DNA of 64,000 nt, from NCBI GenBank assembly GCA_964600575.1, contig CAZRJH010000004.1, positions 6,711 to 70,710 of the forward strand, in the 5' to 3' direction. This stretch comes from an uncultured Gammaproteobacteria bacterium (GTDB lineage Bacteria > Patescibacteriota > Microgenomatia > UBA8517). The position numbers and the translations under genes are program-made. Positions 17,058 through 35,581 of the stretch are shown here, piece by piece. Below the pieces are notes generated by a model. That model did no database searches. It saw nothing but the letters and a program-made list of their open reading frames with translations, and was not told the origin of the DNA. Position 1 is the first letter of the stretch. The number at the start of each line of letters is the position of its first letter.

Positions 17058-17402
17058 TTTGTGGAGTAAAACATTAAGCATTTTCATTATTTCCGTCAGT
17101 AATCCAAAGGCTTTATTAAATTCTGATTTATTTAATAGTCGCAGCTCGTTTGCAAGTAAAAGCTGGGTTTCCAGTTCTGCTCCGGCGCCATAGGCTATGC
17201 GTAGAAATTGAATATATTCTTGTTTATGACCACGGGAATTACCTTCTGCAATGTTTGACGGTATCGACACGGCGGCTCATTGCATTTGGGATGCTAATCC
17301 GTATATTTCTGATTTTGGAAAACTTCTGGTTATTTTGTAAGTGAGTTTGGTCAATTCGAATGATTTCTGCCAAACTATTAACTCTTTGTAGCTACTAATC
17401 AT
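17040..17402 (-). pseudogene. Four-helix-bundle protein of the '23S rRNA intervening-sequence protein' family, interrupted by an in-frame TGA at a conserved Arg codon
   Basis: The upstream frame reads MISSYKELIVWQKSFELTKLTYKITRSFPKSEIYGLASQMQ*AAVSIPSNIAEG.... The family consensus has ...SQ(I/L)RRAAVSIPSNIAEG, so this is CGA->TGA at 17277-17279. The downstream 76-aa ORF restarts at GTG. Confidence 0.7.
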
Positions 17403-18775: not shown

Positions 18776-18780
18776 TTTGT

Positions 18781-19701: not shown

Positions 19702-20067
19702 TTAATTTAGGGTTCGTTTTAGTTTTTTGTAGTATCTGGCTTCTTTTATGTCAGCCTTTAGGGCGTTTATCATTCCCTGAACACGCTTTTTTTCGGTTAA
19801 TTCTTTAGCGATCGCCTCTTTAAATATTTGGATGTTGGCGTCGATTTTCTTTTTGTAGTTTACAAGGTCTTTGACCCCAAAACTTCTATCTATTATTACT
19901 TTATTCGGGTCGTAATTGGGACTAAAAATAATTTTACTTTTTCTTTCGCCGTCTTTTTTTGCAATAACCTTAGAAATATCTCCTTGGTTGGGTGGTGATT
20001 TTTTGCCTTTGGGGGATTTTGCTCCCGAAGAAACCCGGGAAGATTTATTTTTTTTACTTGTTGGCAT
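19702..20067 (-). CDS. Lysine-rich small basic protein (121 aa), hypothetical
   Basis: About 25% Lys or Arg. Its stop abuts the start of the next gene. Confidence 0.5.
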   Translation of the reverse strand: MPTSKKNKSSRVSSGAKSPKGKKSPPNQGDISKVIAKKDGERKSKIIFSPNYDPNKVIIDRSFGVKDLVNYKKKIDANIQIFKEAIAKELTEKKRVQGMINALKADIKEARYYKKLKRTLN

Positions 20068-20233
20068 CTATTATTGCAATTATCTGGTAAAGCCTTTGAA
20101 TTTCGCGTTCCTCTTGCATAATCTGATCCTGAAAAATTTTTAGATTTTTCTTTCTTCTTTCTACTTCTGCCACAACCGAGTCTTTGTCGTACCGCATAGC
20201 TTCTTCTTTGGTAACGGGTTTATAGGGGTCCAT
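20054..20233 (-). CDS. Small hypothetical protein (59 aa), translationally coupled to 19702..20067
   Basis: ATG-initiated ORF MDPYKPVTKEEAMRYDKDSVVAEVERRKKNLKIFQDQIMQEEREIQRLYQIIAIIDANK overlaps the downstream start by 14 nt. It is below the ORF-track cutoff. Confidence 0.3.
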   Translation of the reverse strand: MDPYKPVTKEEAMRYDKDSVVAEVERRKKNLKIFQDQIMQEEREIQRLYQIIAIIDANK

Positions 20234-20287
20234 AACAAGAACATATTAACATATGGGTAAAATATTCAAAAGAAGTTTACGGTGAAG

Positions 20288-20713
20288 TTATTTGAATCTG
20301 TCCCAAAATCCCTTTTTCTTTTCTTCGTCGATTTCTTCTTGGGTTTTTTTGCTTACAAATCTACCACCGGGGCCGCGTGTAACTCTGGTCTGGGGGGTAG
20401 ACGGATCTCCTTTTGATTCTTCCTGGGCCAGTTCTTCGGCGGCTTCTCCCGCATCCTCTACCTCTTTTTGGTACTCTTCTTTGTCTTGAAACAAATCGCG
20501 TTCCTCCGCTTTATCGATTTTTGCCAGTTTGTCCTTTTTTGCCTGAGCTAAATTTTTCTCAAGATTTGCCAAGTGGTTGTCTATAGCGCTCTTAAGCTTA
20601 TTTTCGGAAGATTCACGGAATATAACAACCTCGGCTCGGTTTCTGGCGATATAAATAATTTTATTGCCGTTAAGGGATTGGGATATGCTGTAACCTTTAT
20701 ATGTATTGGCCAT
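20288..20713 (-). CDS. Hypothetical acidic coiled-coil protein (141 aa)
   Basis: ORF 7 nt downstream of the giant gene. Confidence 0.5.
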   Translation of the reverse strand: MANTYKGYSISQSLNGNKIIYIARNRAEVVIFRESSENKLKSAIDNHLANLEKNLAQAKKDKLAKIDKAEERDLFQDKEEYQKEVEDAGEAAEELAQEESKGDPSTPQTRVTRGPGGRFVSKKTQEEIDEEKKKGFWDRFK

Positions 20714-20719
20714 CTAAGT

Positions 20720-23665
20720 TTAAGTAATGATTGTATCAGATGTTCTAACGATACTAACCGTCATACCTGTTGTGGTGACGGTTGAGTCTGATTCGTAAGG
20801 CAAAATAGGGGAGCTGCCTGCGGTTGATCTTCTGGCACGGACTCTAACAGGAATATCCGCACTGTAAGTAATAGTTGCCTGTTCCGTTCCGGGTGTACCG
20901 TCGGAACCGGTTATTTCATAAGAGTCTATCATTGGCACATACCAGGTGTCTTGCGGGGATGTTGTTGTAGCAACGGGGAGTACATTTAATTTTATATTGT
21001 CTGCCGTTGTTTGCGAGGCAATGGCGGGGGAGATTGTGACAGTGTTGTTGTCTGTGACAACCGTAATATAAGAAACTGCATTACCTCTGGTTACATTAAC
21101 TACCAAGTCGCCTACTTTAGAGCTTGCAAAAGCGCCGGTCTCTACGATTGTTGTGGTGTTTGTTCCTGAATCGGCAGATGCAATGTCGCTACTCGCAAGA
21201 GTAAATGTTGTTCCTGTCCAGCTCGAAAATCTTATACGGTACTCTGCATTTGCAGAGGTATCAACAAGTCTTATAACTCCACCCGCGTTTCTTCCAGGTT
21301 CGTCAACTGTTATAGAAGATCCCATTACGGCGGTTGTTGCCAAGGCGGATTGAACTGTGGCGTTGTATCTGTTTTTGATAATGTTTCCGCCCGAACCATC
21401 CAGTCTAAAGACGGCAATTTTATCGCCGCTTCTGGTGTTGCTTACGGTAATGGTAACTTTGGTAGGTGCAACCACCACATTGTTGTTGTCGTCTGTCAGC
21501 TGGAAGTTGTTAAGGTCTGAGCTAAGATAATCGGTAAGAACCAAACCCGGAGCACAGAAAAACTTTCCTCCTGCGAATGTACCCATGGGTGCGGCTGCTA
21601 CCGGTGTAATTGACGCAACGGGTGTGGCGCCGGTTATCGTTACATAGTTTGAACCGTCTACTTGAATGTTATTTACCTGGTTAAAAGTTCCCCTGGCGTT
21701 TCTAAGGATAAGAATTTTGTCCGTGGTGTTGTGGTTAACCACTGTTCCTGTAAATCCGGAAGAAACCTGTGTAACAGTTGCACCGTCTGCAATGGAACCT
21801 GTGATTGTATCGTAGATAATACGGGTGTCGTTTCCCAGGTAAAACTGCCCTTCAATGGTTTGTGAACCGGAATCAATGTCTGCAGTAGAACCCCGCCTGG
21901 TTACATACTTTGTCCACTGATAAACCTTGCCTAGGGAATTTTGATTACAGTCAAGAGTAATGGAGTAGTTTTCTGCGGTCCCGTTTTCGTCAATGTCGTT
22001 TGAGCCTCCCGTTGCTAGACCTCCAAATGTAAGAGTAGGGGGTGTGCCGCTTTCGAAGAAGGTTGTACCCGAAGTCGTTGCAGGCCCTGCATCTGCGGGA
22101 GTTCCTGCCGTACAAGTAGCATCACCATCTGCGGTTCCTGTGTATTCTACAATTGCGTCGGAATTTGCAAAGTCGGTGACAGGGTCTCCAATTAAATAGT
22201 AGGTGAGTACAGGAGATGCACCAGTGCCTCCCACGGCAGTAAGCTTGCCTCTCTTTGTTGCTGTTGCCCATGTGCCGCCAACATAAATATAGTTACCCGA
22301 GTTAAAAGTTCCGGATCCCGACGATCCAGTGAAGGATCTATATCCTGTTTGATTATCAAGGTCGTTACCCGTCTGCAAAGGAATAGGGTTACGTCCTCCC
22401 GAGGTTAAATCCACCGAGTAGTACGAATAAGTCTTGCTGTACTGGCGGGCGTAAACATAAATGTAGCCTTCGTCTGTTTCTGTACCCAACTCTTTAACAT
22501 TTACCAAAATATCTATGTGGTCGGTTGTAAGGCCTGTTGTTTGATCGCTCCACCAATCGGTTGTGCCTTTGTAAGCCACCATGTTCGCAGCGTTTTGCCT
22601 AATGTAAATGTGGGTGTAAGTTTCGATTGTACCGATGGAGTAGATGTTGGCCCAGAGTGATTCTCCGCCGGATACCGCTGCTGCGGATTGAGTGGCCGAT
22701 CCGATTCCGCCGATAAAACCCTGATCTAAAACGGGGTTGGTGGAATAAGTTCCCGCTACAAGTGCCCTGATATAAAACAAACTTTGCGATCCGTTTAAGG
22801 ATGTTGCAACCCAATCGCTTGGTACTGTAAAAGTTAGTACTTTGCCGTCGCCAACCGATGCGGTAAATCCGCTTGTTGCGTCCGAAACTCCGGACAAAGC
22901 CGTCCAGGAACCGTTCCAATACTGCCAGGTCACGCTTCCTCCCACTCCCGCTGTTCCGTTTGCGTAATCAAAAATAACTTTTTTGAATTTTTGTGTAAAA
23001 CCGATTGCACAATAATCGGAGGTATCCTCCGAAGCGGGGAAGACCTGCCAGTCAGCGTTACCCGCACTATTTGCATCGGTTGATTCGTCAACAAATGTTG
23101 TATTGTCCACCTGCCAAACTTGGCTCATAGTGGAGTTAGAAATTGCGATTGTCCCGCTCGTGGAATCCCAGTCGTTTCCTGACGCGCTGTCTGCCGGTCT
23201 TATCCAGGCAACCTTTGTGCCAAGAACAGTGTTAAAGTCTAAAAGTGTGCCGGAATCAAGTCCTGTGGCATTTGTAATTGTTCTACCAATATCTGTTGTA
23301 TCAAAATCAGTTCCACCTACGGTGTAGTTTATTTTTACAACACCAACATTTGTTCCTGTAACACGGTCCCAAGAAGCAGTTTTGAGAGCACCGCCCGTAA
23401 GATGTTCAACTGTGGTTCTGTCTATAAACCAGGGATCTTTATCTCCCGCATCGATAATTCCGATTGTGTACTCTGTAGGTGTCTGGGCGCTCATGGGAAC
23501 ACCGTCGTCCATCTGTCCGAGTTCGTCAAAGAGTTCTTGGAGAGCAGAGTAAAGTTGGTTAACAGTTCTTGTACCGGTAGAAGAACCGGTCCACTCAATT
23601 CTTTTCTGCCTGTTTTCGGCAGAATAATATACGGTAAAATCCCCGCTCAAGATTGTGTCAGACAT
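20720..23665 (-). CDS. Giant Gly/Thr/Ser-rich protein (981 aa), no signal peptide; tail-fibre/surface-like
   Basis: Uninterrupted 2.9 kb ORF. The N-terminal region is weakly similar to the N-terminus of 17477..18775. Confidence 0.65.
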   Translation of the reverse strand: MSDTILSGDFTVYYSAENRQKRIEWTGSSTGTRTVNQLYSALQELFDELGQMDDGVPMSAQTPTEYTIGIIDAGDKDPWFIDRTTVEHLTGGALKTASWDRVTGTNVGVVKINYTVGGTDFDTTDIGRTITNATGLDSGTLLDFNTVLGTKVAWIRPADSASGNDWDSTSGTIAISNSTMSQVWQVDNTTFVDESTDANSAGNADWQVFPASEDTSDYCAIGFTQKFKKVIFDYANGTAGVGGSVTWQYWNGSWTALSGVSDATSGFTASVGDGKVLTFTVPSDWVATSLNGSQSLFYIRALVAGTYSTNPVLDQGFIGGIGSATQSAAAVSGGESLWANIYSIGTIETYTHIYIRQNAANMVAYKGTTDWWSDQTTGLTTDHIDILVNVKELGTETDEGYIYVYARQYSKTYSYYSVDLTSGGRNPIPLQTGNDLDNQTGYRSFTGSSGSGTFNSGNYIYVGGTWATATKRGKLTAVGGTGASPVLTYYLIGDPVTDFANSDAIVEYTGTADGDATCTAGTPADAGPATTSGTTFFESGTPPTLTFGGLATGGSNDIDENGTAENYSITLDCNQNSLGKVYQWTKYVTRRGSTADIDSGSQTIEGQFYLGNDTRIIYDTITGSIADGATVTQVSSGFTGTVVNHNTTDKILILRNARGTFNQVNNIQVDGSNYVTITGATPVASITPVAAAPMGTFAGGKFFCAPGLVLTDYLSSDLNNFQLTDDNNNVVVAPTKVTITVSNTRSGDKIAVFRLDGSGGNIIKNRYNATVQSALATTAVMGSSITVDEPGRNAGGVIRLVDTSANAEYRIRFSSWTGTTFTLASSDIASADSGTNTTTIVETGAFASSKVGDLVVNVTRGNAVSYITVVTDNNTVTISPAIASQTTADNIKLNVLPVATTTSPQDTWYVPMIDSYEITGSDGTPGTEQATITYSADIPVRVRARRSTAGSSPILPYESDSTVTTTGMTVSIVRTSDTIIT

Positions 23666-23712
23666 AATACTTAGAACTTACCGCCTGTGTAGTGGCAGTG
23701 AAGTCTAAAATG

Positions 23713-23742
23713 AGTATAAGTAGGCCGTTCTTGGGGTGTCAA
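23713..23742 (-). promoter_or_regulatory. Sigma70-like promoter (TTGACA-18 nt-TATACT on the minus strand) upstream of the 981-aa gene, preceded by a tandem AATTGATATATTT direct repeat
   Basis: The reverse complement reads TTGACACCCCAAGAACGGCCTACTTATACT. The direct repeats lie at about 23763-23800. Confidence 0.35.
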
Positions 23743-23801
23743 TAGGGTTTATTTATTAACGCCGAAATTGATATATTTGAGTCGGAATTGATATATTTTT
23801 C

Positions 23802-26252
23802 TTAGGCAGTTGTGTCTTCTATTAGTGTTATAGTTGCAGAAAAACCCGAAGAAGAAATGGTTCCTGTTGTGGATGCTGGGTAATATTTTGTTGATCCGGT
23901 AGATGATTTTCTTACGCGTATATAAATATCGGTATCAGACGAATAGTTGAAGGTTGTTTTTGCTGTCCCGTTGGATGCTGTTCCGTTTCCCGAACCCACA
24001 CCTGTTGCTGTAAAAACTTCACCAACCGTATTACTTGCAGCACCAACTGCTGTAAAATCGGTCGTTCCAACACTAAGTATTATATATTTTGTTCCCACCA
24101 CAAAATTTCCTGCGGTTACCGTCTCTGTGTCCATGTTCATTAGTTGGGTATTGTCGCTAGACTTGTAAATTGCAGTTTGAGCATTTTCTACAGGGTAGTT
24201 TGTACTGTCTACAACGGTTACAGTGAGATAAACCGTATTATTAACTGTGGTTGATGCATTTGTACCGTTTCTGATTGTGGGGGTCGTGCCCCCATTCGTG
24301 ACATTAATTGTTACTAACCCTCCCGAATTGTTATAAACATCAGCAGTAGAACTGCCTTGGGCACCGCCTCCGCTAAAGTCTATATTGTCGAAAGTGTAGG
24401 TACCGGTTGCGGTGATTTCTATTGAATGTCCATTTGTATTATTTATGAAACTGCAATTAGATATCCTTTCCATTTCCGTCGTAGAGGTAACCGTCAAGGC
24501 TGTTGTTGAGTTACTGCTTACAATCGAACAGTTATCAAGGTATGTACCCGAAGCCAAAAAACCGTCGCAGTTCGACCAGACAATATCACTTAGATGAATG
24601 TCTGATACAAGTGTAACTGTTCCTGCACCTATTACAGTTAGTCCCGAAAAATCATATGTTGCAGAAGAGGACGAGCCTTCATTAAATCCCCAATGATATT
24701 TACTGGCACTGGAAACCAGAGAGTTCCTGTGTTTAATCGTATCGCCACTACCGGCGTAGTAGGTAATACCGGTGACATTATCAATAGAGTTGTAGGAAAC
24801 AAGTTTTGCATCGGCGTCATATTGTTTGGGGAATTCTAAAGCGGTGTCGTTAAAGTCCATATATAAAGGATTTGTTCCTCCGTCGCCAAATTGAACTGGC
24901 CCCAGAATTAAGGCCTGATTTGCGCCCTGCTGGATTATCGACCTTCTTTCGTGACCGTTGGATCCCGCCAACCTCATACCTGCTATGTTTAGCGGTTCGG
25001 AGGAATTACCGCCAGCTATGGTGACCGTATCCAGCATCCACAACGAATAAAAGTCCCAGATTGTAGTTGAAACACCAATTCCTGAAACCCAGAAACCAAA
25101 TGCTGCAATAGATGAAGGGTCTAGTGTTCCCGCAGTTGCTTTTGTATTTCCCGCAGCCTCGTTTATAACCAGAGGCAGGTCACGTGCGGTGTATTCCGGG
25201 CTGTCAACTCCTCTTACTTGCCAAATCTTATAATCGGTTGCAGAGCCTGATCTCATACCTGCCCAAATTCCCCGGCCTGACGCGATTCCTGAAAAGCGTT
25301 GGATTTGTCCTGCCGTACTTGGGCCGTTGTGAACTAAAATATTTTTGCCGGTAACATCTGGTTTGTTGCCCGTTGCAAGTACAAGCTCTGCACCGCTCAT
25401 GTTTTTTGTTGCCGAGGTGGTTGTAAGTCTACCAACAGAATGGAACGAATTTAAACCTACGTCAGCAGCAGCTGCGGTTGTAGCATCATCAGCAGTTTTT
25501 CCGCCAAGGCTTGTCCCAAAACCTGTATCGGCCGTTGCTGCAAGGGCAGTATCTCCGTTAAATGCAGTAACTCCATTAATTGGGTTTATATAAGTTGAGG
25601 AGTCAGCTGTACAATAAACGGGAATTACAGTTGCGCCCCCCGAAGGTGCTGCTATTTGAATAGTGGCGTCGACCCCTGTAACGCTTGCAGTGTTTGAACA
25701 GACCACATTTGACGGAGTTGTTCCGGATGTGGGTTGAAACCCCCAACCAACTCCGTCTGCGTGCGCCGATCCGTCGGCGCCATAAAGCAAAGTAACAGGA
25801 CCTTCTATCAATGAGGGTATAGATGCTGTGGTGTTCGATACTACATATAAAACCAAGGAATTATCTACTGTTGTAGAAATTGTTTGCATGCTGAATTTGT
25901 ATGATCCGGAATGGTTGTGGGTTGTATATGTTGGTGTGCTGCCGAATGGGTTTGTTGTATCGATATCCCTTACGGAAATAAGTGAGCAATTGAAAGTTTC
26001 AGAGCTTGTTCTAGTGAAGGTAGGGTCGGACTCACTTGAACCCGCAATCTTGTACATAACCGTTAGTTGAGTTGTGTTTGCAACGGAAAAAAGCTGAGTC
26101 CATCCGCTTGATGACCAGGTTCCTGTACCAGTATCGGCAGATAGGATTGCCAACAATAAATCATTTTGTACAAAATCAGGCATTGGTGGAGTAATGGTTG
26201 TTCCTGAAGTAGTGGTGGTATAGGTCCAAGACCAGTCTCTTATTGCAGGCAT
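23802..26252 (-). CDS. Giant Thr/Gly/Ser-rich protein (816 aa), paralogue of 28405..32118
   Basis: Shares the N-terminus MPA(I/L)RD(W/F)xW, the central ASGRG(I/F)W(A/F)GMRS motif and a conserved C-terminal domain of about 120 aa (...TETVTAGxFVxGxxYxIxxVGTTDFT...IYIRVRKSS...) with the 1237-aa protein. Confidence 0.7.
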   Translation of the reverse strand: MPAIRDWSWTYTTTTSGTTITPPMPDFVQNDLLLAILSADTGTGTWSSSGWTQLFSVANTTQLTVMYKIAGSSESDPTFTRTSSETFNCSLISVRDIDTTNPFGSTPTYTTHNHSGSYKFSMQTISTTVDNSLVLYVVSNTTASIPSLIEGPVTLLYGADGSAHADGVGWGFQPTSGTTPSNVVCSNTASVTGVDATIQIAAPSGGATVIPVYCTADSSTYINPINGVTAFNGDTALAATADTGFGTSLGGKTADDATTAAAADVGLNSFHSVGRLTTTSATKNMSGAELVLATGNKPDVTGKNILVHNGPSTAGQIQRFSGIASGRGIWAGMRSGSATDYKIWQVRGVDSPEYTARDLPLVINEAAGNTKATAGTLDPSSIAAFGFWVSGIGVSTTIWDFYSLWMLDTVTIAGGNSSEPLNIAGMRLAGSNGHERRSIIQQGANQALILGPVQFGDGGTNPLYMDFNDTALEFPKQYDADAKLVSYNSIDNVTGITYYAGSGDTIKHRNSLVSSASKYHWGFNEGSSSSATYDFSGLTVIGAGTVTLVSDIHLSDIVWSNCDGFLASGTYLDNCSIVSSNSTTALTVTSTTEMERISNCSFINNTNGHSIEITATGTYTFDNIDFSGGGAQGSSTADVYNNSGGLVTINVTNGGTTPTIRNGTNASTTVNNTVYLTVTVVDSTNYPVENAQTAIYKSSDNTQLMNMDTETVTAGNFVVGTKYIILSVGTTDFTAVGAASNTVGEVFTATGVGSGNGTASNGTAKTTFNYSSDTDIYIRVRKSSTGSTKYYPASTTGTISSSGFSATITLIEDTTA

Positions 26253-26283
26253 ATTAAAAAAATGATATCACAGCCGAAGTTTG

Positions 26284-26646
26284 TCAGGACTTAACGTTCT
26301 TAAGAGTTTTCTTAACCAAAGCATCTAAATCCAAATCGCTTTTAACAATGTAGTCAGTTGCACCTCTTGTACCACCTTCTTCTTCAGGTAGATTGCTTGC
26401 AACAATAACAGGGATATTTTTTACGCTTTCGTCATTCTTTACCTTTCTCAGAAACTCGTAGCCGTCTATACCGGGAAGTAGAATGTCTAATACTATTACA
26501 TCAGGGATCCATTTTTTAAGGTTTTCTAGACCTTCTTCTGCAGTTCTAAATGATCTCACAACGAAGCCGGCTTCCTCAAATTTATATCTCATAGCTTTAC
26601 TTATAAACTTGTCGTCTTCGATAACCATTACTTTTGGTTTTTTCAT
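26284..26646 (-). CDS. Response regulator, stand-alone receiver (CheY-like) domain
   Basis: 120 aa with acidic pocket residues (IEDD..., VLDILLPGIDG) and a conserved Lys. Confidence 0.85.
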   Translation of the reverse strand: MKKPKVMVIEDDKFISKAMRYKFEEAGFVVRSFRTAEEGLENLKKWIPDVIVLDILLPGIDGYEFLRKVKNDESVKNIPVIVASNLPEEEGGTRGATDYIVKSDLDLDALVKKTLKNVKS

Positions 26647-26649
26647 TTT

Positions 26650-28278
26650 TTAAATATTACCATTCGGTTGGGGTATTGTGAAATAAATTTTTGTTCCCGA
26701 CCGTGCAGAAGCTAATCTGATATTACCCCCATGGGCTTCTACAATTAGTTTAGCAAGATATAATCCAAGCCCGGCCCCTTCTGTATCTTTTAATTTTGCA
26801 TTGGAAGCTCGGGAGAATTTTTGAAATAAAGTTTCCAATTCATTTTTAGGTATCCCTATACCCGTGTCCGATATAGAGACAACAATCTCTTTCTTGTTTC
26901 CGTCAATCTTAACCAGAACTTTGCCTCCTGGATGATTGTATTTAAATGCGTTGTCGATCAAATTGAGGAATACCTGACTAATCAATTTTTCATCAATATT
27001 TATTTTATTTGGAACGTTCTTGGATGTTTTTATGGTCAAGTGAATTTTTTTGTTTTTATAGACTTTTCTGACATCACGAGAAGAGTTTTTTATTAAATTG
27101 TGAATACTTGTCGGTTTGGGGTCTATTAATATTCTTTTTGACTCCAGTTTGGAAACACTTAATATTGTTGATATAAGTTCTATCATTCGTTTGGCGGATA
27201 GGTGGGTGTCTTTTACTATTTTTTCCTGTTTTGAGGTTAGGCTCCCCGGAGATTTGGATAAAAGTATTTCACTAAACCATTTTATTGCAGTAACAGGAGT
27301 TCTTATTTGGTGTGATGCTAATGATATAAAATCACGCTTCAAACTTTCGAGTTCTTTAATCTTTTCTATTGACTTAGCAATTAAAGAATTGCCTAATTTC
27401 ACACCTGCATATATTGAGACAAGTGTTGCAATAAGAAGGAAAAGTAGAGTTTTTCTAAAGTTGACAATTGGAGTAGCAAACACCTCGGATTCGGTTTTTC
27501 CAGCCAAGACAAAAATCTCATTTTCACCGTCTCCGGCTTGTTCATAAGCATAAATTCTATTTATTCCGTCTATTCCTTTTGTCTCAAAAATTCCTTCCGA
27601 GTCATTTTGAAAATAGTCGTTAATAGGAAAGATTTGCCCGATCCAATTTTCTATACTGGGATTTCTTGCCAGGATCACCCCTTTTCTGTCTAGAACAAGT
27701 ATTGTTACGTCTTTGTCTAATTCTAGGTTAGATATAAACTTACCTAGCCAATCCAGGTTCAAGGTTGCGTAAACTACTCCGCCGTTTGTCAAGGGATATC
27801 CAAAATTTAAACTAGCCAAGTTGGTAGATCTACTTACAACGTACTCACCGACAGTAAAACTGTTTGTTTTTTTAGTTTGAATATAAAAATATCTGTCAGA
27901 TAAATTTTGCGGCTCTCTAAGTTGGACACCTGAACAGATAACATTACCGGTCTTGTCAGTAACTCCAAAATTGCCGTATCTTTGGTAACTACCTAGCACT
28001 TCGGAAATATAAATTGAACACTCACGGCCGCCTAGGTTTATCTTTTGAGTTGCAGAAAGCGCGATCAATAGTTGCCTTGCACCTTCCGTAATTTGCTTGT
28101 TTTCGAGGGCAACCAAGGTGGCGATATTTCTTAGTTCTGTTACTTTTGCCTGCTTTTCTTGATCTAGTTGGGACCTGTTTACCAGATACGCTAAGACTAC
28201 AAAAGGAACTAGTGTAAATGCGGTTAGGAGCAAAATCTTTATACGTATATTAGAAATGTTGAGTTTTTCGGAGAACAT
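26650..28278 (-). CDS. Sensor histidine kinase with extracytoplasmic Cache-like sensor domain
   Basis: Two TM helices flank a domain of about 250 aa. H-box SHQIRTPV, N-box LIDNAFKY, G1 DTGIGI and G2 GAGLGL. Confidence 0.85.
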   Translation of the reverse strand: MFSEKLNISNIRIKILLLTAFTLVPFVVLAYLVNRSQLDQEKQAKVTELRNIATLVALENKQITEGARQLLIALSATQKINLGGRECSIYISEVLGSYQRYGNFGVTDKTGNVICSGVQLREPQNLSDRYFYIQTKKTNSFTVGEYVVSRSTNLASLNFGYPLTNGGVVYATLNLDWLGKFISNLELDKDVTILVLDRKGVILARNPSIENWIGQIFPINDYFQNDSEGIFETKGIDGINRIYAYEQAGDGENEIFVLAGKTESEVFATPIVNFRKTLLFLLIATLVSIYAGVKLGNSLIAKSIEKIKELESLKRDFISLASHQIRTPVTAIKWFSEILLSKSPGSLTSKQEKIVKDTHLSAKRMIELISTILSVSKLESKRILIDPKPTSIHNLIKNSSRDVRKVYKNKKIHLTIKTSKNVPNKINIDEKLISQVFLNLIDNAFKYNHPGGKVLVKIDGNKKEIVVSISDTGIGIPKNELETLFQKFSRASNAKLKDTEGAGLGLYLAKLIVEAHGGNIRLASARSGTKIYFTIPQPNGNI

Positions 28279-28404
28279 TAATTTATAGCTATAGTATCCA
28301 AAGTTAGACTAGCGGTCAAACTCGGCGATAACCGACAATCTCTGTAAGACGATAACTTTACGCCGAGAAAGATATGTTTATAGTATTGATCTTAGGAGAA
28401 ATCT

Positions 28405-31400
28405 TTAGGCGTTAGTGTCTTGGGTCATGGATACAGTTACGCTAAACCCGGACGATGTAACAGTGCCTGTTGTGGATGAAGGGATATATTTGGTGGCCCC
28501 TGCGGATGATTTTCTGACACGTATATAAATAGGTGTGTCGGCGGTGTAGTTGAATGATTCCACAGCAATTCCGTTTGTTGCCGTTCCCGTTCCAGAACCG
28601 ACACCTGTTGCAGTGAACACCACCCCTATGGTGTTAGATGATGCTCCAATGAGTGTAAAGTCTGTAGTTCCGACAGTAACTATTCTGTAGTTTACCCCTG
28701 CGACAAAACTTCCCGCGGTTACTGTTTCCGTATCTTCGTTCATTAGCTGCGTGTCATCACTGGTTTTATATATAGCAACTTGTGCTAGCTCGATAGGGCC
28801 GTTGTCTGCTTTGTCTAGTACGGTAACGGTGAGGTTTACTGCATTGTTAACAGTTGTCGATGAGCCGTCGGAATTTCTTATACTTGGCGTAGAGCCATTT
28901 ACGACATTTATAGTTACTGAGCCGCCTGAATTGTTATAAATTGCAGCTGCGGCGGAATAAATGTACTGCGTACCCGAACCGGCAACCGTAATGTCGGCCC
29001 TTCCCGTTGCCCCGCCTGCAATTGCGTGGTCTGAGGTGTCGTAAAGTGTAATAGTTGTAGAAGATTCACTTCTTACATAATAAAGATTGCCGTCGGTTAA
29101 CCCTGTTGGTGCTGTTCCACCTTGGTCCTGGAAGTAAGCGGGTTCACCATTGCTGTAACCGTGAGATGCATCTAGTGTTATTACATCCGTAGTTGTATTT
29201 ACCCCTGAGGCAGCATTAAAACTTCTAGCTGCAGGGCCGTAATTTGTAAAAGTGTTTCCGGTTATTGTCACGGTACCTGTAGATGTCAGTCTTAAAGCAT
29301 GGCCGGAGGTGTGTGATCCTGTAAAGGTATTATTAGAAAACATATCAAGGTCGGCCGTGGCTACCGAGGCCCATCTGTTGCCGGCGGTAACTGTAGTTGT
29401 TGTGATGCTACTTTCGGAGATGACAGTGCTCGAAGTTGTAGTTACCGAGTCGTTGGTTGCAGGCATATTTTTAATTGTTCCGCCGGTAAAAGTCAGGCCG
29501 CTTATATCAAGTGTTGAGTAGTCATTGATTGTGAGATCCGTTATTGTGATCGCCTTATTCAAAGTAACGGTTCCGGCACCAATTACCTGCAGTCCGGAAA
29601 AGTCATATGTGGCAGTGGTGGAGGCACTTGTATGAAGCCCCCATTTGTATCTGGAAGGGGAGGAAACTACGGAGTTTTTGTGGATTATTGTATCGCTAGA
29701 ACCCGGGTAATAGGTGATACCTATTACATTGTCGGTTGAATTGTAATTAATCTTTTTAGTGCTTTCGTTGTATTGGCTGGGTAGCTCTATGGCTGTTGAG
29801 TCCAAATTCAGATAAACAGGGTTCGTGCCGCCGTCACCAATTTGTAAATCTTGCAACAGAAGCATCTGTTTGGCTCCTTGCAAAATTGCGCTCATTCTTT
29901 CTTTTCCGTTGGCAATTACTTTAATAATACCCTCGATGCCCATGGGTTCTGCGGAATTTCCCCCTGAAATTACTGTTGAATCCATTACCCATAACGAACC
30001 CACACCCATTTGCACCGTATTTGTTCCTGTAATTCCTCCCACCCAAAATCCAAAAGCGGTGATAGCGGAAGTGGTCAAAGATCCCGCACTATCAACCGTA
30101 TTCCCTGCGCCCGAGTTGATAATAATAGGCACATGAGCGCCAGATCCCCACGGTGCATCAACCGCGTGAACCCTCCATATTTTATGGTCACTGGTTCCTG
30201 TTGTATTGGATCTCATTCCAAACCAAAATCCGCGACCCGACGCAATATTGGTAAAACGCTGCAAGTTGGCGGGGGTGGAGGCACGTACGTGGCAAAGTAT
30301 ATTTTTTGTACCCACATTTGGCCTGTTGGCAACCGCAAGAACAAGCTCAGCACCGCTGATTTGGTTTGTTGTCGTTGCATTGGTCATACCTCCCATGGAG
30401 TGGAAGGTATTAATTCCCACGTCTGCAATTGCGGCGGCTGTCGCATCATTGGCAGTGGTTCCCGAGAAAGGCCCTGTGCCAAAGTTTGTATCCGCTGTTG
30501 CCGCAAGCGCGGTGTTTGTATTAAAAGCAGTGACTCCATGGATCGGATCCACATACGAACAGTTGTCGGTGGTTATATATGCAGGTATTACCGTTGCGCC
30601 CGTGAGCGGTGGTTGAACGGCAATTGTGGACTGGCCGCCGTTACCTGATGCATAAGAATCACAAACAACATTGTTTGCGGTTGTGCCTGCAGTTTTCAGG
30701 AAACCCCATCCTGCACCCATGGATTCTGCTGATCCGTCTGCTCCAAATATGTAATTAACAGGTCCTTCCAAAAAAGTTGGTGCTGCGGCTGATGCAGAAG
30801 AAAGACGATAGAGAATAAGTGAGTTGTCCCTGTCGGTGGTTGTTGTTCCCATTGTAAACCTGGCAGCACCTGTTGCAGCAGCTTCGTTGTAGTTGAATCT
30901 GTATACATAAAAACATGAATCGGTTCCTGAAACTGCGGACCAAGAACCGTTATATGTAGACAAATTTCCCGCATGCCCTGGGGAGGATGTATCCACACCG
31001 ACATTTACAAAATTGCTGCCGTCTCCACCTGAATATTCAAGTGTTACAACATAATCAACCGCCGCCATAGTGAACCACCAACTGGGGAAATAAAAATCAG
31101 TTAGAGCAAGTGAGCCCGTTAGGGTTGAAGCGTCTACGGGGTTGGAAACTGCCAAAGCGGATCCTGTTGGGGTAGATGATGTTCCAAGTGTTCCTGTTTC
31201 CAGGTAAAGTTTTGCCACAATATTGCCAGTTGGGGATCCGGTTTTACTTAAATAAAAAGTAGTTTTAGAAAGTACAGTTGCCGTTCCCGTAAAAGATTGT
31301 CCCACGCCTGTTATGGTTCCATTTCCAAGAGCCTGGGTAGCATTTTGATTTGATTCCGAATAGCTGGAAACGGAAACGGACGGAAAAGGCGAGGAGGTGT

Positions 31401-32118
31401 CTATGTCGCGAACGGATATTACGCTGCCGTTGTATGTTTCGTTTGTTGCGGTAACTACCGTGACATCATCTTCTAGACTTGTTGCAAGTTTGAAAAAGGT
31501 AATATTGGCAGTTGTGTTATTTCTTGTAAAAAGAGTCTTCCAATCACGGACCCAGGCTTGTGTACCAAGCGGGCGGGTTGTTAGAGACGTAAACGAAATA
31601 ACTCTGGAACGCACCCAATAGGCTGTTATTGAATTTATTGATGTGGTAGCCCAGTCTGTTGGTACCGTAAAGGTTACATCCCTGTTTCCTGTGCCTGCCG
31701 TAAAGTTTGTTGTTCCGTCTGAAAGTCCTGGCAAAGTTGCCCAGGTACTACCGTTATAGTATTCCCATTCTATATCCCAAGTTGCAGAGCCGTTTGTTCC
31801 GATATTTATTCTCAATAATTCAAATTTATTGAGACATCCATAGTAATAGGCATCGTTTACTGCAGGTGCAGCGGGAACTAATTCCATGTCATTCGCAGTT
31901 GTAGAATTTGCGTCGGTTGTGTCGGTCGCCATTGCACCTCCGTCGTCTGATACTGCAGCATAAAGTGCAGACAGAAGTGTCCATGTGGGGGTTCCCGTAT
32001 CTGCCATGGCGTAGCCAACCAGCAAATCTCCCGAAGCATAACCACACATGGGGATTGTAACTCCCGCATCGGCAGTAGAAGATTCAAAGGCCCAAGCAAA
32101 ATCTCTTAAAGCTGGCAT
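28405..32118 (-). CDS. Giant Thr/Gly/Ser-rich protein (1237 aa), paralogue of 23802..26252
   Basis: Same N-terminal, central and C-terminal signatures as the 816-aa protein, with a large extra central region. Confidence 0.7.
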   Translation of the reverse strand: MPALRDFAWAFESSTADAGVTIPMCGYASGDLLVGYAMADTGTPTWTLLSALYAAVSDDGGAMATDTTDANSTTANDMELVPAAPAVNDAYYYGCLNKFELLRINIGTNGSATWDIEWEYYNGSTWATLPGLSDGTTNFTAGTGNRDVTFTVPTDWATTSINSITAYWVRSRVISFTSLTTRPLGTQAWVRDWKTLFTRNNTTANITFFKLATSLEDDVTVVTATNETYNGSVISVRDIDTSSPFPSVSVSSYSESNQNATQALGNGTITGVGQSFTGTATVLSKTTFYLSKTGSPTGNIVAKLYLETGTLGTSSTPTGSALAVSNPVDASTLTGSLALTDFYFPSWWFTMAAVDYVVTLEYSGGDGSNFVNVGVDTSSPGHAGNLSTYNGSWSAVSGTDSCFYVYRFNYNEAAATGAARFTMGTTTTDRDNSLILYRLSSASAAAPTFLEGPVNYIFGADGSAESMGAGWGFLKTAGTTANNVVCDSYASGNGGQSTIAVQPPLTGATVIPAYITTDNCSYVDPIHGVTAFNTNTALAATADTNFGTGPFSGTTANDATAAAIADVGINTFHSMGGMTNATTTNQISGAELVLAVANRPNVGTKNILCHVRASTPANLQRFTNIASGRGFWFGMRSNTTGTSDHKIWRVHAVDAPWGSGAHVPIIINSGAGNTVDSAGSLTTSAITAFGFWVGGITGTNTVQMGVGSLWVMDSTVISGGNSAEPMGIEGIIKVIANGKERMSAILQGAKQMLLLQDLQIGDGGTNPVYLNLDSTAIELPSQYNESTKKINYNSTDNVIGITYYPGSSDTIIHKNSVVSSPSRYKWGLHTSASTTATYDFSGLQVIGAGTVTLNKAITITDLTINDYSTLDISGLTFTGGTIKNMPATNDSVTTTSSTVISESSITTTTVTAGNRWASVATADLDMFSNNTFTGSHTSGHALRLTSTGTVTITGNTFTNYGPAARSFNAASGVNTTTDVITLDASHGYSNGEPAYFQDQGGTAPTGLTDGNLYYVRSESSTTITLYDTSDHAIAGGATGRADITVAGSGTQYIYSAAAAIYNNSGGSVTINVVNGSTPSIRNSDGSSTTVNNAVNLTVTVLDKADNGPIELAQVAIYKTSDDTQLMNEDTETVTAGSFVAGVNYRIVTVGTTDFTLIGASSNTIGVVFTATGVGSGTGTATNGIAVESFNYTADTPIYIRVRKSSAGATKYIPSSTTGTVTSSGFSVTVSMTQDTNA

Positions 32119-32192: not shown

Positions 32193-33323
32193 ATGAACAA
32201 TATTAATGGTAAACTTGTTCCCAACTATTTGCCGTTTGTTCCAAAAGAATCGATAGAATTGGTTACAAAAACTCTCAAAAGCGGATGGATAGGTGGGGAC
32301 GGACCGAGAGTTAAGGAATTCGAAACAAAAATCGGCAAGGTAATCAAAAATCCGAACGTTGCTGCGGTTAATAGTGCCACATCCGGGCTTGAACTTGCTC
32401 TCAAAATGGCGGGGGTAAGCGGTGGAGAAGTGATTTCTACCCCAATGACCTGTTTTGCCACCAATGCAGCAATTGTTAACCAGGGGGCGACTCCTGTGTG
32501 GGTAGATGTAGACCCGGAAAGCGGAAACATAGATTTTGCCAAAATCGAGGCTAAAATAACCAAAAAAACACGGGCAATTATGGTTGTAGACTGGGGAGGG
32601 ACCCCGCCGGAACTCGACGGAATTAATAAAATAGCTAGGAAACATAAATTACCCATAATAGAAGATTCTGCCCAATCTTTAGGCTCTTTTTATAAAAGAA
32701 AAATGATAGGAAATCATGCCGACTATGTAGTTTTTTCTACCCAGGCCATAAAAATAATTACCACGGGGGATGGTGGTATGGTAGCTCTCGGGTCAAAAGA
32801 GGGGCTTTCTAGGGCAAAACGCTTAAGATGGTATGGGATTGATCGGGAAAAACGCAAATACGGGCCTCTTTTTTGGAGCTATCCAATTACAGAAGTCGGC
32901 GGAAAACTGCAAATGAACGACATTTTAGCCTCGGTTGGATTAGGACAACTGCCTAAACTTAAAAGCTTGCTTGCTCACCACAGACGGATTGCAGTTATCT
33001 ACAACAAGGCCCTTTCTGCCCAAACCAAGCTCAAACCCCAAAAAATTCCTGCGGGTGCAACTCCAAACTACTGGATTTATACTGTTCTTTGTGGGAGTGT
33101 CAAAAACCGCAATAAACTCCAAAAAGAGCTTTTAAAAATAGGTGTAAAAAGTGAACAGGCCCATAGACGTAACGACTTGTATCCGGTTTTTAAAAAATAC
33201 CAAAACGGCGCTCTGCCCGGTGTTGCTAAATTCGACAAGGAACATTTGATTATTCCGATCGGATATTGGGTTAACTTGGAAACCGCTAAAAAAATTGCTA
33301 AAGTCCTATCGGAATTTAAATGA
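32193..33323 (+). CDS. DegT/DnrJ/EryC1/StrS-family PLP-dependent sugar aminotransferase
   Basis: 376 aa with fold-type I aminotransferase architecture, including ...DGPRVKEFE..., IIEDSAQSLGS and a conserved Lys region. Confidence 0.8.
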   Translation: MNNINGKLVPNYLPFVPKESIELVTKTLKSGWIGGDGPRVKEFETKIGKVIKNPNVAAVNSATSGLELALKMAGVSGGEVISTPMTCFATNAAIVNQGATPVWVDVDPESGNIDFAKIEAKITKKTRAIMVVDWGGTPPELDGINKIARKHKLPIIEDSAQSLGSFYKRKMIGNHADYVVFSTQAIKIITTGDGGMVALGSKEGLSRAKRLRWYGIDREKRKYGPLFWSYPITEVGGKLQMNDILASVGLGQLPKLKSLLAHHRRIAVIYNKALSAQTKLKPQKIPAGATPNYWIYTVLCGSVKNRNKLQKELLKIGVKSEQAHRRNDLYPVFKKYQNGALPGVAKFDKEHLIIPIGYWVNLETAKKIAKVLSEFK

Positions 33324-33835
33324 AAAATATTTTTGAAAAGTTGGAAATAAAAACGGAAAAAATATTGCTCCGGCCAATGACAAAAAATGATTTAGAATTT
33401 TTTACGAATCTCAGAAACAAGTCCCTCAAATTTTTGCATACGGGTAAAAGATACACTTTGGAAGAAGCCAAAATCTGGTTTCGGAAAAACAGACCTGCAT
33501 TTTTCATTATCCAAAAAGAAGGCAAATCTGTCGGGTATATTAGAACATCCGACTGGGATCATCATAATAAAAATGTTTATGTGGGGGCAGATATTTTGCC
33601 GAACGAACAAGGAAAAGGCATAGGTTATTTCGCCCTTAAACTTTTTATAGATTATCTTTTTAAAAAAGAAAAAATGAATAAAGTTAGCTTGGAAGTTTTA
33701 GATTTTAATAAACCAGCACAAGCGCTCTATAAAAAACTCGGTTTTAAGATAGAAGGAACTAGAAAAGACCATGTTAAAAAAGGCAAAAATTATGTGGACT
33801 CAATTATTATGGCTTTGCGAAATAGTGACCGGTGA
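33320..33835 (+). CDS. GNAT-family N-acetyltransferase
   Basis: 171 aa with acetyl-CoA binding motif QGKGIGYFAL. The start overlaps the DegT stop by 4 nt. Confidence 0.7.
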   Translation: MKNIFEKLEIKTEKILLRPMTKNDLEFFTNLRNKSLKFLHTGKRYTLEEAKIWFRKNRPAFFIIQKEGKSVGYIRTSDWDHHNKNVYVGADILPNEQGKGIGYFALKLFIDYLFKKEKMNKVSLEVLDFNKPAQALYKKLGFKIEGTRKDHVKKGKNYVDSIIMALRNSDR

Positions 33836-35581
33836 ATTGCCCTTAAGATAATTTTTCCAAACTTCTTTATATGCGCTTTCTATTTCTTGAGTCTTGGATT
33901 TTGTATCAAAAATATTTTGTATAAGTCTTTTGGCTGAGATTTTGTTTTTTATGTTTTCGTAAAATGTTTTATTTGTTGCAAGGTTAACGGCGATTTGTTT
34001 GTATTGCTTTTTATTTTTTGCTATTAAATCTTTAGCATTTGCCGCATCCAAAACACTTGCAGAAAATCTTGATGCGGGATGTTTACCGAGCATTGTTACA
34101 ACCGGGACTTCGTTTTGCAGCGTTAAATATGTAGTTGTACCCCCGCCATATATAAAAGTGTCCAAAGCGGCATCCGCCAATTTCATTCTGGAAACAAACA
34201 TTTCGGTAGGCGTTTGCTCGGCAAAAATAATTCTGTCTTCCTTAACTCCTTTTTCTTTTGCGTATTTCAAAAGGTTATTTTTGGCATCTTCGTTTTGGCT
34301 TAACATCCAAAGGACACTTCTTGGGGAGGATTTTAGAATATCAATCCATATATCAAAGCTGGTTTTTTCTATTTTGTAAGTTTGATTAAAACAACCAAAA
34401 ACAAAGGCGTCTTTAGGTAGGCCAAAGTCTTTCCTTGTAAAATCAAAATCTTTGGCTTCTACTATTTTAAAAGGGCAAAAACAGGGGGACAAATATATTA
34501 GTTTTTCCGCATAATGTTTTTGGCTTTTTTTGGGAACTACAATGTCGTCAACAAACATATAGTCAAAAAAATCCGATCCGGTTGATGCCGACAAACCGGC
34601 CCAAGTTACCTGGATTGGACAAGGTTTGTACGCAAAGATTTCCGATCTGGTGCCTTCCGTGTATCCCGTTAAATCAACCAAAATATCAACATCGTCTGCG
34701 TTAATTTTTTGGGCCGCTTCCAAATTGTTTAAACCGTTTAGGTCGGTAAAATGATCGACACTTTTTTCTATGTTTTTTCTAACCTTACTGTTGTCGTTCT
34801 TTCCGTATGAATAGGCAAAAATTTCGAAATCTTTTTTGTTGTGATACTCAAATATAGATGCCATTGTGTAGGAAACTGCGTGATTGCCAAAGTTTCCCGA
34901 AACATAACCTATCTTAATTTTATTAGGTTTTTTGTCCCTGTCGTTTTTAAAAGTAAAACCGGACTTTGTGGCATTCTTTTTGTATTGCATACTTCTTAGG
35001 GCCCCTGCTATCAAGTTTTGTTCTTCGTCTTCTGTTCTTACAACCGAAGCCCAAGGGGTTTCTTTGTGGGTTTTTTGCAGATAGTCATCAACTTTGTCCA
35101 GATCCTCCCAATCACATATTTTTCTTTTGGAGATATAAAAGTTAGAGGCGGACATCTCGTATCCGGGAGAAATATTAAATATTTCTCCGTAGAATTCGGC
35201 AGCCGCTTTGGTGTCGCCGTTTAGGTTGGCCACATGCCCCAGTCCATACAATGCTGGAGGGAATTCGGGAATAAGTTCCAAAGATTTTTTAAAACAACTT
35301 TGTGCACTTTTACCCTGCCCGCTTCCTAAATAGGTATAACCCAAATCTGCCAGAGTTTCGGCATCGGCCTTGATAGAAAGCGAGTCTTGGTAATGTTTTA
35401 TGGCATCCTCTGTTTTTCCAAGAATCCTCTCCGTATTGGCGAGGTTTTTTAAAACATATGGATTTTTGGGGAAAAGGCTATCGGCTTTTTGATATATCTT
35501 AAAAGCTTTTTTAAAGTTGCTCACCTGAACAAAACCGATGGCTTTTTTATTTAAACTAAGAAGGTCGGAAAGTTTCTTCAT
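33800..35581 (-). CDS. TPR-repeat glycosyltransferase, GT41 (O-GlcNAc transferase/SPINDLY-like) candidate
   Basis: N-terminal TPR repeats (about 200 aa) followed by a two-lobed C-terminal domain resembling bacterial OGT homologues. Confidence 0.5.
   Translation of the reverse strand: MKKLSDLLSLNKKAIGFVQVSNFKKAFKIYQKADSLFPKNPYVLKNLANTERILGKTEDAIKHYQDSLSIKADAETLADLGYTYLGSGQGKSAQSCFKKSLELIPEFPPALYGLGHVANLNGDTKAAAEFYGEIFNISPGYEMSASNFYISKRKICDWEDLDKVDDYLQKTHKETPWASVVRTEDEEQNLIAGALRSMQYKKNATKSGFTFKNDRDKKPNKIKIGYVSGNFGNHAVSYTMASIFEYHNKKDFEIFAYSYGKNDNSKVRKNIEKSVDHFTDLNGLNNLEAAQKINADDVDILVDLTGYTEGTRSEIFAYKPCPIQVTWAGLSASTGSDFFDYMFVDDIVVPKKSQKHYAEKLIYLSPCFCPFKIVEAKDFDFTRKDFGLPKDAFVFGCFNQTYKIEKTSFDIWIDILKSSPRSVLWMLSQNEDAKNNLLKYAKEKGVKEDRIIFAEQTPTEMFVSRMKLADAALDTFIYGGGTTTYLTLQNEVPVVTMLGKHPASRFSASVLDAANAKDLIAKNKKQYKQIAVNLATNKTFYENIKNKISAKRLIQNIFDTKSKTQEIESAYKEVWKNYLKGNSPVTISQSHNN

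Follow-up and report, generated by a model that had tools for sequence, protein, structure and literature searches.

What kind of system consists of two giant paralogous genes with a sensor kinase and a receiver gene between them, and where did its parts come from? The question is raised by a 64-kb stretch of contig CAZRJH010000004.1 (64,000 nucleotides, hereafter the window; all positions are counted from its first letter), in which the list of open reading frames (ORFs) places nine genes, all co-oriented, at positions 17477–32118 of the minus strand. Along that strand they encode proteins of 1237 amino acids (aa), 542 aa (a histidine kinase, HK), 120 aa (a receiver, RR), 816 aa, 981 aa, 141 aa, 121 aa, 306 aa and 432 aa. 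We gave the name c0 to the family of the 816-aa and 1237-aa proteins. Sequence comparison suggests, with a probability of about 0.5, that the block holds a domesticated phage appendage module, in which exchangeable c0 subunits are paired with a sensor kinase and a receiver.

Two giant genes with a conserved core

An earlier note on this DNA, made from its letters, had described the two genes as paralogues with constant termini and a variable middle. Both ORFs were borne out on the minus strand, the short c0 paralogue (816 aa) at 23802–26252 and the long one (1237 aa) at 28405–32118, and so were their shared motifs, namely an N-terminus beginning with MPA(I/L)RD, an IASGRG(I/F)W(A/F)GMRS block and a C-terminal block with TETVTAG and IYIRVRKSS. 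The last 134 aa are 68% identical, and the 3′ 400 nucleotides (nt) of the two genes agree at 67.5%, rather than at the roughly 75% given before. BLASTP with composition-based statistics yielded four colinear blocks, so that homology spans the whole length of both proteins: aa 1–47 of the short protein against 1–47 of the long one (43% identity), 42–99 against 185–241 (47%), 109–654 against 410–987 (47% over 578 aa, E = 6e-152) and 605–816 against 1027–1237 (62%, E = 4e-61). The statement that the middle regions differ greatly was wrong, as the middle is the longest conserved stretch, with 51–57% identity between aa 103–548 of the short and aa 404–853 of the long protein in a global alignment; the cores are conserved and the two genes differ by inserted domains.

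The extra 421 aa of the long gene comprise three insertions, at about aa 48–184, 242–409 and 854–1054. With approximate boundaries, the long gene consists, on the minus strand, of an N-terminal anchor-like motif (aa 1–47, 31978–32118), insertion 1 (31567–31977), insertion 2 (30892–31395), the conserved core (aa 410–853, 29560–30891), a third insertion or extended beta-helix (28957–29559) and the shared C-terminal domain (aa 1055–1237, 28408–28956). Insertion 1 is a domain that also occurs in the 981-aa protein of the same block (aa 194–318, 36–39% identity, E = 2e-15).

Threonine, serine, glycine and alanine make up about 46% of the residues of the giant proteins. A compositional artefact was nevertheless rejected, given the ordered blocks, their low composition-corrected E-values and the 36 invariant columns in a 51-sequence family alignment. 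We also rejected a recent tandem duplication, since the two copies are not sisters in a tree of the c0 core and Levybacteria hold an equivalent pair; the further copies that the earlier note had thought worth seeking are absent from the window. Diversification by a diversity-generating retroelement was rejected as well: there is no reverse transcriptase match and no template/variable repeat pair within 15000–37000, where the only direct repeat of at least 40 nt is a paralogous 53-nt stretch at 77% identity, and the sole related feature is a split bAvd-like gene described below.

A large unannotated family with a predicted all-beta fold

With the 816-aa protein as query, the relatives found numbered at least 294; each is unnamed or labelled "hypothetical", and no Pfam domain occurs in any of them. 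A profile search of 1.84 billion cluster representatives (clusters at 50% identity) returned 746 clusters at E ≤ 1e-30 and 2617 at E ≤ 1e-10. No match to c0 was obtained in PHROGs, in PDB sequence and profile searches or in Pfam, which returned nothing even at E ≤ 1 on ten sub-domains. Our literature search found no published description of the family or of its presence in Patescibacteria.

The AlphaFold2 (AF2) model of the 816-aa protein, built on the alignment of 51 sequences (mean predicted local distance difference test score, pLDDT, 93.8), predicts an all-beta architecture on the minus strand: two N-terminal beta-sandwiches resembling carbohydrate-binding modules (CBMs), at aa 1–200 (25653–26252) and aa 205–415 (25008–25640), a right-handed beta-helix-like region at aa 420–660 (24273–24995) and a C-terminal beta-sandwich at aa 665–816 (23805–24260). 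Foldseek matched it to solved structures of CBM11, agarase CBMs, GH87 and phage capsule-lyase beta-helices, SlaB and an archaeal virus turret. Among predicted viral structures, the matches were a 904-aa uncultured Caudovirales protein (E = 9e-55, TM score 0.64), a protein of Virus Rctr197k and, through one common domain, many phage proteins of about 220 aa or minor tail proteins. Across the family, conservation is even over residues 1–680 and lowest in the C-terminal domain; within the window's lineage, all c0 copies share that domain, as does, more weakly, the 981-aa protein.

Inside the C-terminal sandwich, aa 716–760 of the short paralogue (23973–24107, minus strand; equivalent in the long paralogue at 28567–28707, minus strand) form a 45-aa mini-domain that is present in 11% of family members and has the pattern AGxFxxGxxYxIxxxGTTDFTxxGAxxNTxGxxFTATG. 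It recurs at 48–70% identity in otherwise unrelated phage proteins, with carriers annotated as "virion structural protein" (cyanophage S-TIM54), "phage stabilization protein" and "b-glycanase", and is also found in four viral loci (L041–L044) and in the family c11 (phrog_1645). Another giant Thr/Ser-rich Microgenomates family, c141 (1196 aa; L048 4381–7971, L047 13373–15046), ends in the same "IRVRKS...KYxP" domain as c0 and the 981-aa protein, which may be a module common to several large proteins in Microgenomates genomes.

A three-gene module shared with phages

Two further proteins of the block have phage counterparts. The 981-aa protein (20720–23665, minus strand) belongs to a family that we call c3, a partner of c0. 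It is 45% identical over 676 aa to c3 of a viral contig (L017), and c3 is homologous to a second phage family, c2 (hhalign probability 98.8%, E = 6e-17). The last 55 aa of the 981-aa protein are akin to the C-terminal domain of c0. The AF2 model of the protein (pLDDT 76), in which the invariant segment at aa 334–440 has low pLDDT, weakly matches baseplate proteins of the Photorhabdus virulence cassette and of a Streptomyces contractile injection system as well as a chain of the LME-1 portal-tail complex. The 432-aa protein (17477–18775, minus strand; family label c10) begins with a domain of about aa 1–108 that resembles a third phage family, c1 (hhalign probability 97.3%, E = 2.5e-11), continues into a right-handed beta-helix at aa 249–371 (Pfam Beta_helix, E = 3e-13; NosD also matches) and shares a short C-terminal motif with Woesebacteria c1. 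Judged by these matches, the window carries the trio within a cellular chromosome as c0 twice, c3, and c1 fused to a beta-helix. In Pfam and PHROG, c3, c2 and c1 had no match at all, to tail fibre and tailspike families included, and their profiles had no PDB sequence match.

In an IMG/VR scan, 40 loci encoded c0, and clustering of the neighbouring ORFs showed c1 (about 180 aa) in 31–33 of them, together with c2 (about 500 aa) in 23–24 or c3 in 12–22; the order c2/c3, c0, c1 is common to phage and cellular loci. In contigs of tailed phages, a T4-type major capsid protein (phrog_138, E = 7e-100) is encoded a few kb upstream of the module, and in myovirus contigs a head-tail adaptor, a sheath stabiliser and a tail sheath follow downstream, which places the module between the capsid and the neck/sheath genes. 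Another viral contig has Phage_capsid_4 about 2.6 kb upstream. The G+C content of the c0-bearing phage contigs, some of which measure 509 kb and 597 kb, spreads from 28 to 67%, and many different hosts are therefore likely. Both are huge phage-like contigs: that of 509 kb (L002, GCA_040384025) combines c0 with TerD, TelA and vWA genes, and that of 597 kb (IMG 3300020045) bears c0 at L004 and L009, the former also with c2 and c1 and with numerous genes for small repeat proteins. In L061, from a contig of at least 144 kb, two aminoacyl-tRNA synthetase genes lie beside c0.

Searches of cultured phages with c0 and c3 queries returned almost nothing; only c2 and c1 queries led to cultured phages, namely Synechococcus phage Syn5 (gp53 and gp55), S-TIP28, Maribacter phage Panino and Virus Rctr197k. 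In each of these, a large protein lies between the c2- and c1-type proteins, with the trios gp53-gp54-gp55 in Syn5, CDS0100-0098-0097 in Panino and _178-_180 in Virus Rctr197k. The c2 hidden Markov model (HMM) matches gp53 at E = 5e-159, with gp53 39% identical over its full length to a metagenomic c2, and the c1 HMM matches gp55 at E = 9e-37, so that Syn5 has the three-gene order with gp53 in the c2 and gp55 in the c1 family. As for the large proteins, Rctr197k_179 corresponds to the C-terminal half of c0 (HMM E = 2e-57), and Panino CDS0098 has the N- and C-terminal domains of c0 with a different middle. Syn5 gp54 matches the C-terminal domains of phage c0 proteins (phmmer E = 2e-15 and 2e-13) and aligns with c0 over 420 columns (hhalign probability 96.7%); it is without the two N-terminal sandwich domains, and appears to have the C-terminal beta-sandwich and probably also the beta-helix half.

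GenBank labels gp53 and gp54 as structural proteins. By immunogold labelling, the two reportedly sit in the Syn5 "horn" at the vertex opposite the tail, and antibodies to horn proteins are said to have left infection unblocked. The trio genes of Syn5 lie apart from the tail fibre gene gp46, and the module seems to derive from an appendage of the head, not from a tail. There are differences from the window too: Syn5 has a podovirus virion, as opposed to a cellular chromosome; in cells, c3 is twice as large as gp53, c1 continues into a beta-helix, and the loci contain additional c0 copies and HK-RR pairs. The window would be homologous to the horn module without sharing its membership in a virion, as neither the window nor the syntenic loci contain capsid genes.

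Tailspikes, fibres and depolymerases offer the nearest likeness in fold. Like the Klebsiella phage K1 capsule lyase (7W1C) and the HK620 tailspike (4XKW), c0 would be a large all-beta protein with a right-handed beta-helix and beta-sandwiches, and its AF2 model joins the beta-helix to a fold of the carbohydrate-binding type. Such proteins are likewise modular, recombine and lie in structural modules, and the fold of the c0 N-terminal domain recurs in actinophage minor tail proteins. In contrast, c0 belongs to no Pfam or PHROG tail-fibre or tailspike family, full-chain TM scores are just 0.12–0.15, and the phage module has the capsid-side position described above.

The same fold matches raise the alternative that the giant proteins are ordinary carbohydrate-active enzymes or lectins under ligand-sensing two-component control, with phages carrying homologues as users of depolymerases. 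The CBM-like sandwiches and beta-helix, the Foldseek matches to CBM11, agarase CBMs, GH87 and capsule lyase, the Beta_helix and NosD matches of the 432-aa protein, the adjoining sugar-modifying genes and the dCache sensor domain of the kinase would all suit it. We consider it unlikely nonetheless, because the proteins have no signal peptide and match no CAZyme or Pfam family even at E ≤ 1, because the strict three-gene order is that of phage structural modules between capsid and neck genes, and because c3, without enzyme-like features, is the most conserved member.

A chromosomal locus in Microgenomates

The rest of the window is cellular. It encodes Rho, TatC with three TatA proteins, an M23/LysM peptidase, tRNA-Ala, sugar-modification genes and further sensory proteins, and the best matches of its Rho (80–84% identity) are proteins named Patescibacteria, Microgenomates and Woesebacteria, so that the organism is a Microgenomates-type Patescibacterium. 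Pfam and PHROG scans of the window's ORFs found no integrase, terminase, portal, capsid or tail gene and no sheath, tube or baseplate hub gene, leaving the c0/c3/c1 trio as the only phage genes in the 64 kb; capsid, portal, terminase and tail genes were not found in the syntenic cellular loci examined either. With no hallmark genes and a locus syntenic across three Microgenomates lineages, we rejected a prophage, and by gene content the window is to be read as Microgenomates chromosome.

In a cellular scan of one genome per species, c0 occurred in Roizmanbacteria, Levybacteria, Woesebacteria (including a complete 1.08-Mb chromosome) and unclassified Microgenomates, and in some metagenome-assembled genomes (MAGs) labelled Pseudomonadales or Gammaproteobacteria. 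These "uncultured Pseudomonadales" and "Gammaproteobacteria" MAGs (L047–L050, L053/L058, L055) carry loci of Microgenomates type, and a 225-kb "Gammaproteobacteria" contig has a Rho 93% identical to the window's; by sequence they look like mislabelled or mis-binned Patescibacteria. Levybacteria keep the window's order, with GT41, GNAT, DegT, a 1251-aa c0 protein, HK, RR, proteins of 855 and 959 aa, two small genes, a 434-aa beta-helix protein and TatA/TatC, and in the Woesebacteria chromosome c0-c2-c1 adjoins tatC, with downstream genes as in the window. This synteny beside tatC indicates that the locus is old and chromosomal. Across Levy-, Roizman-, Woese- and Beckwithbacteria and WWE3, c3 is 55–93% identical.

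The presence of the trio could also mean that the cell makes a virus-like particle, in the manner of a gene transfer agent (GTA) or a defective prophage, with the capsid and packaging genes elsewhere in the genome and the trio still serving as a capsid appendage. Homology to the capsid-associated horn and knobs of Syn5, the closeness of the phage module to the major capsid gene and the lack of secretion signals, as in virion proteins, are compatible with such a particle. It is made distinctly improbable by the absence of capsid, portal, terminase and tail genes from the window and the syntenic loci, and by a fixed tatC-side position across classes and embedded two-component systems, both atypical of prophages.

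Conserved partner proteins and variable c0 genes

A close relative of the window's genome, GCA_964599625 (locus L058/L053), arranges the locus as c0 (1158 aa), HK, RR, c0 (782 aa), an inverted RR-HK pair, c0 (767 aa), c3, small genes, the 432-aa protein, a four-helix-bundle protein and TatA/TatC. Identity between the two genomes is 93% for Rho, c3 and the 432-aa protein alike, 81% for TatC, 75% for the receiver, 72–77% for the small proteins and 46% for the kinase. The 816-aa gene has no orthologue in the relative, its protein being 32–34% identical to the 782- and 767-aa copies (≤34%). Recombination breakpoints, which the earlier note had suggested looking for, are present: the 1237-aa protein is a mosaic with respect to the 1158-aa copy, with 12–58% identity over aa 1–800 and 76–96% over aa 800–1237. 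Against its Levybacteria orthologue (1251 aa) it is more uniform, at 46–92% along its length. The neighbour-joining (NJ) tree built from the c0 core interleaves copies from phages with those from cells and keeps the window's two copies apart. In these comparisons c3 and the 432-aa protein are conserved like Rho; c0 and the kinase are replaced or recombined between close relatives, and c0 appears also to be exchanged with phages.

Such conservation bears on whether the block is a decaying prophage remnant without cellular function. Its genes would be phage-derived, and the giant genes stand out at 44–47% G+C from surroundings of 36–40%; this excess is, however, accounted for by the Thr/Ser/Gly/Ala-rich composition of the giant proteins. 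Every ORF is intact, identity between relatives is as high for c3 and the 432-aa protein as for Rho and higher than for TatC, and synteny is kept across Levybacteria and Woesebacteria, so that we disfavour this explanation and leave it scarcely any probability.

Fast allele turnover, several gene copies and the intermixing of phage and cellular c0 might alternatively mark a defence decoy, in which homologues of the appendage disturb assembly or adsorption of phages bearing the module while the kinase senses cues of infection. The evidence makes this very unlikely: we saw no link between c0 phages and Microgenomates hosts, given the G+C range of 28–67% and the contigs of 509 and 597 kb, the largest c0 phage contig is about the size of a Patescibacteria genome, and the extreme conservation of c3 is unlike that of an arms-race protein.

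Diversification in the manner of receptor-binding proteins, which the earlier note had seen in the pattern, holds as far as homology to a phage virion module, modularity, recombination and the mixing of phage and cellular copies are concerned. The closest characterised relatives, on the other hand, belong to the Syn5 horn module, which includes no demonstrated receptor-binding protein.

A sensor cassette found in cells and absent from phages

The sensor HK (26650–28278, minus strand) has two hydrophobic segments (about aa 10–35 and 271–297) that bracket a dCache_1 domain (Pfam, E = 2.2e-11), followed by HisKA (E = 1.4e-13) and HATPase_c (E = 1.7e-27). The RR (26284–26646, minus strand) is a stand-alone CheY-like receiver (Pfam Response_reg at aa 6–111, E = 2.5e-18); the Pfam scan found no DNA-binding output domain in its 120 aa. 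The block therefore has the HisKA, HATPase_c and receiver parts of a classical two-component system, minus the DNA-binding output.

The pair does lie between the two c0 copies, as the earlier note had remarked. Yet only 3 nt separate the HK stop from the RR start and 31 nt the RR stop from the 816-aa gene, so that the pair belongs with that gene, as the upstream part of a recurring HK-RR-c0 cassette. A kinase and/or receiver directly adjoins c0 in nine of 12 distinct cellular loci, mostly in the order HK, RR, c0 on one strand, and the close relative has two HK-RR pairs; in about 43 phage loci, none was found beside c0. The HK-RR-c0 cassette recurs in cells and is missing from phages. The kinase showed no divergence confined to its sensor part; its differences from the relative are spread along the protein.

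A proposed domesticated phage appendage

Taken as an appendage domesticated by the cell, the module would have c3 and the c1-beta-helix protein as its constant frame and the c0 proteins as interchangeable subunits that probably bind, and perhaps cut, external ligands of the glycan type. Several c0 alleles, each with a cognate dCache kinase and CheY-like receiver, could allow the subunit in use to be matched to an external cue, plausibly where the cell meets particles or the cells of a partner or host. The receiver carries no DNA-binding domain and lies in the same orientation 31 nt upstream of c0, which makes protein-protein contact or a phosphorelay a likelier route of control than direct regulation of transcription.

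Several observations weigh against this interpretation. The phage loci are mostly predicted viral contigs, and the NJ tree carries no support values. Foldseek matches to solved structures are at the level of domains, with low TM scores, and Pfam, sub-domain and profile searches found no catalytic family or active site. A hydrophobicity scan found no signal peptide or hydrophobic segment in the three large proteins. Direct profile comparisons gave probabilities of 61% for cellular c3 against gp53, 64% for c10 against gp55 and 89% for a cell-weighted c0 profile against gp54, the latter over only 83 C-terminal columns; because these values are weak, the link to Syn5 is transitive, running through metagenomic phage proteins and gene order, and its weakest homology step would be that from cellular c3 to gp53. 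Finally, the role of gp55 as knob-like capsid protein is a tentative assignment (Gipson et al. 2014, PMC4102127).

Comparison with systems of similar build places the proposed module more closely. Tailocins, extracellular contractile injection systems (eCIS), type VI secretion systems (T6SS) and GTAs likewise consist of phage structural genes fixed in a chromosome, under purifying selection and with variable target-recognition subunits; in contrast to them, the window has no sheath, tube, baseplate hub, capsid or portal genes, and a three-protein appendage module alone is kept. In its workings, the locus would come closest to such a domesticated set of phage structural genes whose recognition subunits vary, minus every gene that defines those systems. 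In operation only, it also recalls the Bacteroides polysaccharide utilization loci, in which an extracytoplasmic ligand sensor stands beside CBM-like and beta-helix proteins and several divergent cassettes occur per genome; c0 loci differ in having no SusC/D, hybrid two-component system, receiver DNA-binding output or export signals, and we claim no homology.

Neighbouring genes

Between c3 and the 432-aa gene (18781–20713), the minus strand carries ORFs for proteins of 141 aa (20288–20713), 121 aa (19702–20067) and 306 aa (18781–19701), the first two with a charged, coiled-coil-like look. None matched a Pfam or PHROG family. Their counterparts in the close relative, with the identities given above, have 142, 89 and 307 aa, and a Levybacteria counterpart has 134 aa. 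Promoter and terminator scans of the block gave numbers of matches not above chance; the best match, a sigma-70-like TTGACA-18-TATACT (11/12) at 23713–23742 on the minus strand, upstream of the 981-aa gene, is offered as a lead only.

The long c0 paralogue adjoins the sugar-modification genes, assigned by Pfam: a DegT-type aminotransferase (32193–33323, plus strand), a GNAT acetyltransferase (33320–33835, plus strand) and a TPR-GT41 glycosyltransferase (33800–35581, minus strand). Their arrangement over 32193–35581 is identical in Levybacteria, and GT41 lies near c0 in five cellular loci; the tie of these genes to c0 is positional only. The neighbouring GT41 had hinted at N-glycosylation, which we rejected, as N-X-S/T sequons are not enriched beyond composition (z 0.9–1.9).

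At 43840–46686, a set of small membrane proteins (c147, c8, c7, c47 and c146, the last with a transmembrane segment and SH3, matching SH3_3) is 50–75% identical by tblastn to the set of the close relative's locus L053, and locus maps of other Microgenomates place the same set directly beside the c0, HK and RR genes. In c7 (44786–45406), an N-terminal transmembrane segment is followed by a twin-arginine-like DRRAFLK motif at aa 86. Three TatA paralogues (47, 55 and 69 aa) flank tatC at 15578–16973 on the minus strand. Next to them, at 17040–17402 (minus strand), a four-helix-bundle gene of the 23S rRNA intervening-sequence protein/bAvd-like type is split into ORFs of 41 and 76 aa; at the matching position the close relative has an intact 130-aa gene (L058 16222–16614), and the split form is probably a frameshifted pseudogene or a sequencing error.

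The plus strand at 37509–43399 has separate sensory ORFs with dCache_3/sCache (493 aa), CHASE4 (369 aa) and PAS (369 aa) domains and a MASE6-HisKA-HATPase kinase (580 aa), a density of sensors unusual for a small genome. A tandem array at 51924–53153 and 55091–62790 (plus strand) comprises seven diverged paralogues of about 390–475 aa (22–36% identity), each with an N-terminal hydrophobic segment and two with Cupredoxin_1 matches (58661–60088 and 61513–62790). On the minus strand, a 253-aa leucine-rich-repeat protein is encoded at 50600–51361 (LRR_8, E = 1.5e-22), and a 368-aa protein at 53329–54435 has a C-terminal pretoxin-HINT/Hint domain (PF07591, E = 2e-12). The latter gene overlaps the start of a 193-aa ORF (54419–55000), and its product could be a polymorphic-toxin-type or intein-like element.

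Implications for Microgenomates and the c0 family

Recruitment of phage structural genes by cells is a known kind of event. The c0 family is large and unannotated, with over 2600 clusters at E ≤ 1e-10, and common to phages of many hosts and Microgenomates chromosomes, and its only experimentally touched relatives are the Syn5 horn proteins. Should the proposed domestication fail to hold, the c0, c2/c3 and c1 families and the Syn5 link would still annotate thousands of "hypothetical" proteins of phages and of the candidate phyla radiation (CPR). Should it hold, the locus would be a new case of phage structural genes recruited by cells and would offer a candidate, open to testing, for how Microgenomates recognise hosts or particles. 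A conserved frame with hypervariable, exchangeable subunits and dedicated sensors, as seen in the cellular module, is a layout typical of specificity-determining surface machinery.

Taken a tentative step further, to a reading that we rate as possible and rather doubtful, the ultra-small Microgenomates would have made the capsid-appendage ("horn") module into a contact organelle, whose c0 subunits are traded with phages and among cells and whose specificity for a partner or substrate is chosen by a cue. If true, cells would possess a new class of structure derived from phages, and the Syn5 horn family would receive its first function. A large share of bacterial diversity belongs to Patescibacteria, whose contact with partners is mostly uncharted outside Saccharibacteria; such an organelle may be one means by which Microgenomates achieve it.

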